A stretch of DNA of 64,000 nucleotides from Escherichia coli. Lineage in GTDB: Bacteria; Pseudomonadota; Gammaproteobacteria; Enterobacterales; Enterobacteriaceae. Position numbers: made by a program. Positions 27,001-30,000 of this stretch are shown here, piece by piece. Numbering within the stretch: position 1 is the first letter of the stretch; each line of letters starts with the position of its first letter. The DNA lies in the NCBI RefSeq assembly GCF_030013205.1, contig NZ_CP122648.1. One strand, given 5' to 3'.

Positions 27001-30000
27001 CAGACTCTATCAGACTAATAAATTTAGTATTTGTATCAACTTTAATATCATTTGGCGCAAAACTTTGCAGTATTTTTTTAGCTTGTGATACTCTTGTTTC
27101 ATAAACAGGTTGTTCATCGAATGTTGTTTTATCGAGATTCTTATTATGAGCTGTATTGTTTATATTGCTAATATTATTGGTCATTTTTGAATCCTCTTAT
27201 ACGATAGAATGAGAAGCAAATTTCAAAGCTTCAGTTCGGTGTTGTAATACACGCACCATCTGAGCTACCTCTTGTTCGACGGTTTTATCTATCCTTTGCA
27301 TCACTGTAAGCATTTGTTCGCGCGTTTTTGATAGATTGCTTATATCTTGTTGTAGAATTTCGATATCTGCAGACTTACTGGCAGCGTATTGATTCATGCT
27401 CGATGTAATTATTGTACAAACGCCCGAGGCAATTTTTTCAAGAAGAATAGTTATTTTTGCAAATATCATTATAAATTGTGATGATGCTTTTATTTTGTCA
27501 CCGAGAAAATTTAATGCTGACATGATTTTTTTTGATACTGACTTGATCATAGATTCCACGGTGGATTTTATACTGTCAGTTATTTCTTTTGTGATTTCTT
27601 CGGCGGCAGTTTTTGAGAGTGCCTTTACAAGTTCACTTATTGCTACTGAACAAATTAATGTTGCACCAATCATTAATGTTATCATAACAATAGAAGCGGC
27701 TGCAGATGAGTAAATATCTTGTACTAAATCAATAGTCGTTTGTTGGACACCCAAGGCGTCCAGAAGAGCGCAGATTGCGAGTAGTGTGGGGTCATATTTA
27801 GAAATAATACCCGCAAGACCTTCAGTTAGTTTTCCCAAAATCCAACCGGTAGCCGTGGTACCCAGAGTGATTTGACAAATAATATCAACACCTAATACTA
27901 CTGCCCCCGCGATTCCTCCAATTAGTGCCAGCGCTCCAGCAAAGCTTGCCCCAGCACTTGGAACTGCTGCGACAATACCAATCACAATTAAGGCTGCACT
28001 TACGGCAAAGGTAACTACAGTAACGACCTCATTAATAATGTTTAAAACTTTTGTCCATGTAGTATAGCTGCGTGCTGTTTTATTGAGTTTATTTTCCCTG
28101 ACATGGTTAATCTCTTTCATTACCTCAGACTGATTTTTAATAGAGTCGCAATTGGTATCGCCAATAACTTCCATTACTGAGGTAATCAAAAGGATAAATG
28201 TGGCTGTCGCGTTTCTGTTTTTCTGGTTTTCCTGTGTCAGGCAAATATTGGTGGTGAAGTTATTAATCTGTTCTTGCTGTTGAATTTCATCAAAAATCTC
28301 CATACTTTGGCCGATCGCAGCATCAGCATCCATAATGGCTGTATTTAACGATTGCTCAGCTAACGATTTTTTTTGTAATGACAGCGTGAGTGTTTTTTCA
28401 GCCGCATTTTTTTGCGTCAGTACTTTATTATATTGCGGATCGCCAGGTTGCAGTTGCGACAGCTCTTGATTCAATGTATTGACTTTTTTCTCCAGCGATT
28501 GCACCTTTTTATCGACCGTATTGTAATTATTATTGGCCTGATGCATGATGTCGTCGGCTTTTTGCGCGGAATCTAATGACGAGGAGTAAGCGTCACTTAA
28601 TTCACGAAACTTATTATGTGCCATTTCGTGTCGAAGCAGGGTGCTGTCAAGGTTATTATGCAAACGTGTTGTAATATCCTGATCGGCAATGCCTGTTAGA
28701 TTACCCAAAATCATCGTCAGGCGGGCATCGTTCGTCTTTGCTGTAGTGGCGTTGTCGGAATCTGAAACCTGCATTTCAGGCGGAGCAAGCATAGGTTTGT
28801 TTTCAAGACGAGTGCGAATATCGTTATCAAGGGACTTCGGGTTTTTATTAAGCCGCATGGGATCAACTTGCGTTTTGTTGCTGTCCTGCAGTCTTTTTTC
28901 CGCATCGCTATACTGTGTGCGCAATGTTTCGCTGATTTGTTCAAACGTGATCGTTTGTCCCGTAATCGGTGCCGACATAATTCACCTCCTTTTTAAGCTA
29001 TCATCGGGTGTAATTAATTCTTTTTTATTTAACTCATGGCAGATGTTTATTCCCATCTAAAATGGCATCAACGGGAAAGTAAGTAATGTGTTTATTGTTA
29101 TTCTTCTCATTTATTTTATCGCCATGGTTATTTTTTAAATCAACCGGGGCTTCCTCATGATATTTCCTGATTAACTCTTCAGGCGTAAAAGAAGAGTTTT
29201 TTCCGTTTATGTTCATTTTGCCGACTCACTCTGTTTGAACTTCCTCTTCGGTATTGGCTGTCAAGAGTTCAAGATAAGCAGTAGCCATCTCTTTAACTTT
29301 TTCATTTTGGCTGTAGGTTACGACTGTATTAAATAACTCCGTGGCCATTTTAGTGTTTTTTAAGCCCATCTGGCACTGGCCCATATAATAAACCAAAGAG
29401 AAATCGTTATCGGGAGATAGCATTAAACAGATATGATACATGTCGAATGCCTTTTGATAATCTTTCTTCAACTGACAGACGGCGGCATATCCTTTTAAAT
29501 AGTTATAATTTTGGAAATCATAAATACAGAGAAATTTAAAAAAGAGCTCAGCTTCGTCAAGTCTTCCTTTTTCATAAAAGTTATAAGCGTAAGCATAAAC
29601 GCCTTCAAGGGTATCCGGAGTAATGCCATGCAGCTCTGCAAGTGTTGCTCCCATACCTAATGCACGTTCGAACTTACTGGCAATTTCTTTATTTTCTTCT
29701 AAATCCAGATTTGCGCTTTCCATCTCTACTCTCTCCTTTCGAACATTCTTTGTTCAGACTTCACCATTTTTTAGAGGGTGGTGATATCAAAATTCGCTCA
29801 TTTTTATGCCCATCCGTTGGGCTTCCTTTTCTGCATTAAAAACAAGTATTGTTTCAATGAGATAAGATTTTCTATGTGATGAAATGAAAACAATGTAGAG
29901 GGAAATTCCTCCACAATCCTGATGAACGGGTGCAATTTTGATTGGAATTTGAAAAAGCAGGTGATTTACTGATGTGCGAGCGTACGTCAGCGGCTGCTGG

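Follow-up and report, generated by a model that had tools for sequence, protein, structure and literature searches.

The window analysed here is a stretch of 64,000 nucleotides of Escherichia coli DNA (NCBI RefSeq assembly GCF_030013205.1, contig NZ_CP122648.1) that holds the E. coli selC-B/eip island, whose eip genes lie on the minus strand; all positions are window coordinates. Between eicA, which encodes a class II translocator chaperone of a T3SS (type III secretion system), and eipB, which encodes the major translocator, there is a gap of 247 nt with an open reading frame (ORF) of 60 codons, here called ORF60. The reading that we favour, tentatively and short of even confidence, is that ORF60 derives from a genuine small accessory gene on which selection has relaxed in E. 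coli, or which is disappearing there. What the analysis shows is the anatomy of the gap, the population statistics within E. coli, and the ORFs and motifs found in the same slot of related loci; a shared ancestry of the slot ORFs, coupled translation and a loss of function are inferred.

ORF60 and its place between eicA and eipB

The gap has a GC fraction of 0.33, and, read along the minus strand, it is organised as follows:

eicA, 29226..29723, minus strand, class II (SycD/LcrH/SicA-type) T3SS translocator chaperone, 165 aa
Spacer, 29217..29225, minus strand, 9 nt (GTCGGCAAA), from the eicA stop to the ORF60 ATG
ORF60, 29034..29216, minus strand, 60 codons plus TGA, ATG start, sequence MNINGKNSSFTPEELIRKYHEEAPVDLKNNHGDKINEKNNNKHITYFPVDAILDGNKHLP
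Spacer, 28979..29033, minus strand, 55 nt, from the ORF60 stop to the eipB ATG
eipB, 27197-28978, minus strand, major translocator of the SipB/IpaB/SseC family, 593 aa

The family assignment of eicA comes from matches to TIGR02552 (2.7e-33) and to PRK15331 SicA (2.5e-44), and the eipB product carries its own chaperone-binding hexapeptide, 62-PMLAPP-67. The 401 nt that we tested match E. coli CFSAN018748 at 100%. The initial annotation had described a 60-codon ORF at 29034-29216, on the strand of its neighbours and inside a gap of this length, and this is what we find. Its length exceeds what chance would readily give: when the gap was shuffled 5,000 times with its dinucleotides preserved, a sense ORF of 60 codons or more arose with P=0.012.

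The absence of a convincing Shine-Dalgarno (SD) sequence, also pointed out in the initial annotation, is confirmed by the anti-SD duplex energies, which are -4.8 kcal/mol for ORF60, -8.7 for eicA, -12.9 for eipB and -12.1 for eipD; 12% of all ATGs in the island reach the score of ORF60. The weak SD-like sequence before ORF60, GAGTGAG, is made up of the end of eicA and the 9-nt spacer, and the strong SD of eipB, AAGGAGG at 28985-28991, lies inside the 55-nt spacer. The ORF60 ATG is in frame with the eicA TGA and 9 nt downstream of it (TGA plus three codons; 29214-29228), a distance at which re-initiation after termination on eicA is possible. In the protein collection, ORF60 was placed in the same 90% cluster as EicA (representative P0011, 165 aa), an odd grouping that may be due to a member formed by read-through or fusion.

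We found the locus in 733 of the 5,426 complete E. coli genomes, and the Prokaryotic Genome Annotation Pipeline (PGAP) labels ORF60 as 'hypothetical protein' (WP_001024524.1 and allelic accessions). Papers on the eip locus (PMC7058095, PMC11068852) give it six genes, eicA, eipB, eipC, eipD, eilA and eaeX, and speak of no small ORF, and no mention of ORF60 or of its accessions was found in the literature. ORF60 is, then, already in RefSeq as a hypothetical protein and absent from the eip literature. It had no match in Pfam-A, its best NCBIfam match was at E=0.13, and its best PDB match (Sm D2, E=0.25) was judged to be due to chance. No relatives beyond E. coli were found when 5.8 billion proteins were searched by word index, nor when HMMER was run in full against 1.84 billion representatives; the sole match outside E. 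coli, the repeat protein P0010, owes its E-value to inflation by eight stretches and was set aside as an artefact. AlphaFold2, run with the alignment of the alleles, gave a predicted local distance difference test score (pLDDT) of 55.6 and a predicted template modelling score of 0.21, with one short helix at residues 12-21. The C-terminal tryptic peptides of ORF60 are HITYFPVDAILDGNK and HLP. Orphan ORFs under weak constraint, of which ORF60 is one, are nothing out of the ordinary.

Substitutions and frameshifts within E. coli

Substitutions were counted in 65 loci, made up of annotated genomes and 58 metagenome contigs, which gave 32 haplotypes of eicA plus gap. The metagenome contigs were anchored on the start of eipB, so that their sampling is independent of ORF60. 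Changes are listed by codon position (first/second/third), with synonymous changes per synonymous site (syn/S) and nonsynonymous changes per nonsynonymous site (non/N):

eicA, 495 nt: 50 changes, 10/8/32, syn/S 0.36, non/N 0.04, omega about 0.11
ORF60 codons 2-45, 29082..29213, minus strand, 132 nt: 48 changes, 18/17/13, syn/S 0.42, non/N 0.35, omega about 0.84
ORF60 codons 46-60, 29037..29081, minus strand, 45 nt, YFPVDAILDGNKHLP: 5 changes, 1/1/3, syn/S 0.40, non/N 0.03, omega about 0.07

These numbers show eicA to be a constrained gene under strong purifying selection. Codons 2-45 of ORF60 are hypervariable and evolve at the neutral rate with no excess of third-position changes; the density of single-nucleotide polymorphisms there equals that of the synonymous sites of eicA, and the two alternative frames give a like picture. 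Taken as a whole, ORF60 does not present the synonymous excess and third-position bias along its length that mark a coding sequence. The sole positive coding signal comes from codons 46-60, where four synonymous changes stand against one nonsynonymous change in frame 0 (binomial P=0.010), the corresponding ratios being 1:4 and 0:5 in the other frames, a signal that consists of five changes in a block picked after the data had been seen. Downstream of the ORF60 stop, the first 35 nt are variable, mainly through the L002 and L018 alleles (seven changes), and the 20 nt that adjoin the eipB ATG hardly vary (one change).

The E. coli alleles of eipB itself fall into two classes that have diverged deeply, with 85-87% nucleotide identity and pN/pS of 0.33-0.40 (window compared with L006-L009 and L018-L026). 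Since eicA and the gap beside the divergent eipB classes are 96-99% identical, the sequences suggest that a boundary of recombination lies close to where eipB starts, and perhaps that the translocator is under diversifying selection.

The reading frame of ORF60 is interrupted in many genomes at one site:

A6 run (TTTTTT on the plus strand), 29131..29136, minus strand, codons 27-29, site of the A5 and A7 frameshifts

The A5 and A7 alleles cut ORF60 to 34 and 29 aa, respectively, and carry the PGAP note 'frameshifted'. Match spans in 59 of the 733 genomes, sampled at even spacing, showed the 1-nt deletion in 11 and the 1-nt insertion in 7, a total of 18 (31%); among the metagenome loci, 22 of 55 (40%) are frameshifted. 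Both eicA and eipB are intact in 14 of the 17 frameshifted loci that could be scored for the two genes, and eipC is full length in every readable one, meaning that ORF60 can be out of frame while the operon around it is whole. At this locus both frameshift alleles are near-clonal, so these are two events, and not many, that have risen to high frequency.

One metagenome variant of 58 aa, P0004, reads ...DLKITIAINEKNNNKH... and, from its protein sequence only, looks like an A5 frameshift restored by a further 5-nt deletion in the ATAAAATAAAT repeat, which could be a compensatory event or an assembly artefact. The A5 allele also occurs, together with an EicA that is 99% identical, in an E. coli eip locus on a contig (JAIJJM010000039.1) that was binned into a 'Collinsella sp.' metagenome-assembled genome, probably through binning contamination.

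In CFSAN018748 (L001 12291-14976), whose ORF60 region is identical to that of the window, eipD is interrupted by IS2, and in another locus (L020) eicA is interrupted by the same element; both are examples of ongoing attrition of eip. In the window, the adhesin gene eaeX/iatC consists of two ORFs that overlap, one with IAT_beta and Big_1/Invasin_D3 domains and a second running from Big_1 through Invasin_D4; this arrangement points to a frameshift or pseudogene in the strain, or else to an error of sequencing among the repeats. Further along the window lie tRNA-Sec and the backbone genes yicS, nlpA, yicL and setC. The neighbouring features are:

eaeX/iatC, 16294-19953 and 19881-22709, plus strand, inverse-autotransporter adhesin gene in two overlapping ORFs
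eipD, 24661-26010, minus strand, eip island gene
eipC, 26054-27184, minus strand, eip island gene
tRNA-Sec (selC), 34205-34299, and the adjoining IS3-family integrase ORF (rve, HTH_21), 34580-35485, minus strand

Small ORFs in the same slot of related loci

The eip genes share with the sicA-sipB operon of SPI-1 (pathogenicity island 1 of Salmonella) and with ipgC-ipaB of Shigella both the order and the families of their genes, namely a class II chaperone of the tetratricopeptide repeat (TPR) type, a SipB/IpaB-type translocator, a minor translocator and a SipD/IpaD tip protein, and the translocators of those systems likewise carry a PxLxxP chaperone-binding motif near residue 60. The arrangement differs between chaperone and translocator, where SPI-1- and Shigella-type operons have 2-51 nt with nothing in between, whereas here 247 nt hold a 60-codon ORF. 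The two genes are separated by 5 nt in both Shigella (ipgC-ipaB) and Escherichia marmotae pEM148, by 2 nt in Providencia, by 51 nt in Pantoea, and by 32, 34 and 46 nt in three other SPI-1-like contigs, so the initial annotation was right in contrasting the adjacency of sicA and sipB with an unusually long gap in eip. Long gaps were found in the following loci, given with EicA identity, gap length and ORF content:

E. coli eip (window): EicA reference, 247 nt, ORF60
E. albertii eip, same chromosomal site: EicA 70%, 263 nt, ORF70 (70 codons)
Third eip type, E. coli drafts (L014/L015): EicA 54%, 255 nt, no ORF over 30 aa
L085, metagenomic locus linked to spaOPQRS: EicA 52-54%, 282 nt, no ORF over 36 aa
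L086, metagenomic locus linked to spaOPQRS: EicA 47-52%, 268 nt, ORF81 (81 codons)

By chaperone identity these five loci form no obvious clade. The eip-type loci are deeply diverged, with EicA 54-70% identical and EipB only 26-28% (27% between E. albertii and E. coli), and the long gap recurs in all three types. The third type (L014 5001-10480, L015) encodes an inverse autotransporter, the chaperone WP_202147860.1, translocators and a HilA-like regulator, its EicA and EipB being 54% and 28% identical to the window versions, and none of the 5,426 complete E. coli genomes has it. In E. albertii, the length of EicA varies between 167, 173 and 174 aa (L010 7001-7522; L093, L095), probably by way of a YAYAYA repeat near residue 45.

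Both ORF70 and ORF81 resemble ORF60 in lying directly after the chaperone gene on the same strand, in ending 26-55 nt before the translocator start, and in being small, hydrophilic database orphans with N-termini of a similar type (MNINGK / MNSINK / MKIETS). They differ from it in that their starts overlap the chaperone stop. The GTG start of ORF70 is preceded by AAGGAG, a good SD with an energy of -8.8 kcal/mol, and ORF81 (4004-4249 of its locus) starts at an ATG. An ORF of the length of ORF70 is also unexpected in the E. albertii gap (P=0.005, dinucleotide-preserving shuffles). E. albertii genomes annotate ORF70 as 'hypothetical protein' (e.g. BAT37120.1), and the diversity of this species, with 2-3 differences per ORF70, is too low for an estimate of dN/dS. 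A homology search for relatives of ORF70 returned only E. albertii sequences, and Pfam, NCBIfam and PDB yielded no match. The end of eicA and the start of ORF60 can be aligned with the chaperone/ORF81 junction of L086 through a shared ATG (AAGTTC..GAGYGAGTCRGC(AAA)ATGAA); the alignment has P=0.001 with allele L003 and P=0.06 with that of the window. An origin of the slot ORFs by duplication of the translocator was also considered, and rejected when the comparison of each small ORF with the N-terminus of its own translocator was non-significant.

A second difference from ORF60 is that both sister ORFs contain PxLxxP. The P/VxLxxP hexapeptide is the element by which translocators bind the TPR groove of their class II chaperone, as in IpaB (65-PELKAP-70), YopD (58-PELIKP-63) and PopD (49-VELNAP-54) (PMC3443056). 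ORF70 has 47-PELIKP-52 and ORF81 has 50-PTLKKP-55, at residues 47-55 and so near the place of the motif in translocators, and in the ORF70 segment LIPELIKPIQ 7 of 10 residues agree with QVPELIKPSQ, the YopD peptide that was crystallised. In composition-matched shuffles, the probability of the motif was 0.03-0.05 for ORF70 and 0.01-0.03 for ORF81. Its presence in two of three slot ORFs at a translocator-typical position, noticed post hoc, is suggestive. P/VxLxxP is absent from ORF60 and from all its alleles, in which the nearest strings, TPEELIRK and VDLKNN, are both polymorphic. The major translocators examined have the motif at residues 52-77, with the exception of that of L086 (4276-6006), which reads PMLANS in place of a canonical PxLxxP and lies just downstream of the ORF81 that carries PTLKKP. 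An AlphaFold2 model of a fused chain of EicA, ORF60, E. albertii EicA and ORF70 had a mean pLDDT of 46 and scored both small ORFs under 40; it did not dock even the PELIKP block that was meant as a positive control, and so is uninformative on binding.

Possible descent, function and loss of ORF60

According to the reading we favour, ORF60 would be the E. coli occupant of a slot for a small gene, placed between the class II chaperone and the major translocator in eip-type and some other SPI-1-family operons. The ancestral accessory gene would have had a start translationally coupled to the chaperone gene, and in the sister loci its product would carry the class-II-chaperone-binding PxLxxP. In E. 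coli, translation, if any, would proceed at a low level by re-initiation at the weak-SD ATG 9 nt past the eicA stop, yielding a hydrophilic, largely disordered 60-aa peptide without PxLxxP, the first 45 residues of which would be drifting freely. Slippage by plus or minus 1 in the A6 run would have truncated it in two near-clonal lineages, with the operon intact in most sampled loci. The approximately 100 nt upstream of eipB are more conserved than the rest of the gap, and may retain either a residual constraint on the 15 C-terminal residues or a role as the leader or ribosome-binding region of eipB.

The initial annotation had offered a real small protein or an incidental ORF as the two options, and on these the conservation test is split. 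A purely incidental ORF is unlikely in view of the length statistics in two independent lineages, the coupled starts together with the alignment of the ORF60 ATG with that of ORF81, the motifs of the sister ORFs in the same slot, and the frame-specific synonymous excess in the last 15 codons. Just as unlikely is a gene under constraint throughout, since the ORF has no coding signature over three quarters of its length (codons 2-45), the SD is weak, and about a third of the loci (30-40%) are truncated without collateral decay of the operon, mostly with intact eicA, eipB and eipC. Several observations weigh against descent followed by loss. Pairwise similarity among ORF60, ORF70 and ORF81 is not significant and the gap DNAs of the three eip types do not align, and since significant sequence similarity is lacking, common descent of the slot ORFs rests on their position and on one short junction alignment. 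Long gaps without a sizeable ORF occur in the third eip type and in L085. The frameshift alleles, being near-clonal, count as two events only; the frame-specific pattern of codons 46-60 (P=0.01) suits a live gene better than a dead one; and nothing can be learned from the lack of nonsense changes among intact alleles (1.36 expected, P=0.24).

It is possible, though in our view doubtful, that ORF60 is functional wherever it is intact. The conserved C-terminal half (about INEKNNNKHITYFPVDAILDGNKHLP) would then do the work, the N-terminal half would be a sequence-tolerant region similar to a secretion signal or a linker, and A5 and A7 would be recent loss-of-function variants, in agreement with the mutational attrition reported for ETT2, the second type III secretion system of E. 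coli. Codons 46-60 would fit such a protein, with synonymous changes at the neutral rate and few nonsynonymous ones, as would the few changes in codons 35-45, the length of the ORF, the same-slot ORFs elsewhere, the near-clonal and hence recent frameshift alleles, and P0004 if its frame was indeed restored. A protein with 45 of 60 codons evolving neutrally would be unusual, however; the C-terminal test comprises five changes in a block chosen post hoc, the frameshifts remove codons 46-60 in loci whose neighbours are mostly intact, and the weak SD, the low pLDDT and the missing PxLxxP add to these difficulties. We think it unlikely that the slot never held a gene in E. coli, in which case the gap would be a long eipB 5' leader or intercistronic region with an incidental ORF, and the conserved 3' block and spacer would act in cis on eipB translation or mRNA stability. 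The neutral evolution of most of ORF60 and the tolerated frameshifts agree with this, as do the ORF-less gaps of about 255-282 nt in the third eip type and L085, the mutually unalignable gaps of the eip types, and the almost invariant last 20 nt before eipB. On the other hand, such a leader does not account for the ORF lengths in E. coli and, independently, in E. albertii, for a synonymous excess specific to frame 0, or for PxLxxP in ORF70 and ORF81, which is unexpected in non-coding sequence. Moreover, the gap had no Rfam match at E up to 1, no promoter-like or terminator-like site on its sense strand, and no fold beyond that of shuffled sequences, either over its whole length (z=-0.63) or in the conserved block of codons 46-60 (z=-0.74).

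We consider it very improbable that only the act of translation matters, for instance if ribosomes on these AT-rich 247 nt prevented Rho-dependent polarity on eipBCD and the peptide were irrelevant. An open frame whose sequence drifts, and a start 9 nt past the upstream stop, would suit such a translated spacer, which does not predict the frame-specific constraint in codons 46-60 and is at odds with the common A5 and A7 alleles, which leave about 140-155 nt untranslated, and with the ORF-less gaps of L014 and L085. Selenocysteine read-through of the in-frame eicA TGA, considered as selC is adjacent, was rejected because the gap folds no better than shuffles and the E. albertii ORF is in another frame than its chaperone gene; no dedicated search for a selenocysteine insertion sequence was made.

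Small secreted T3SS regulators that bind a chaperone are known in Pseudomonas (ExsE) and Yersinia (LcrQ/YscM), where the chaperone is of class I type and not a TPR class II protein. ORF60 resembles them in its small size, predicted disorder and location in a T3SS operon, which is a functional analogy only, and differs in that no search revealed a sequence relationship. A more ambitious proposal, to which we give little credence, is that the slot encodes an undescribed and very fast-evolving family of small T3SS substrates that would occupy the TPR groove of the chaperone through PxLxxP, as secreted competitors or anti-co-activators coupling secretion to chaperone availability in the manner of ExsE; ORF60 would then be a diverged member using its C-terminal segment (codons 46-60) instead. 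This proposal concerns the sister ORFs more than ORF60.

If ORF60 is a fading accessory gene, as we tentatively favour, the value of the finding lies in annotation: the status of the seventh eip 'hypothetical protein' in RefSeq could be stated with evidence, and the 247-nt gap would be explained. If the slot ORFs bind the translocator chaperone, they would represent a new small regulatory or secreted component of SPI-1-family systems, and would help to explain the control of the cryptic ETT2/eip system in extraintestinal E. coli lineages.

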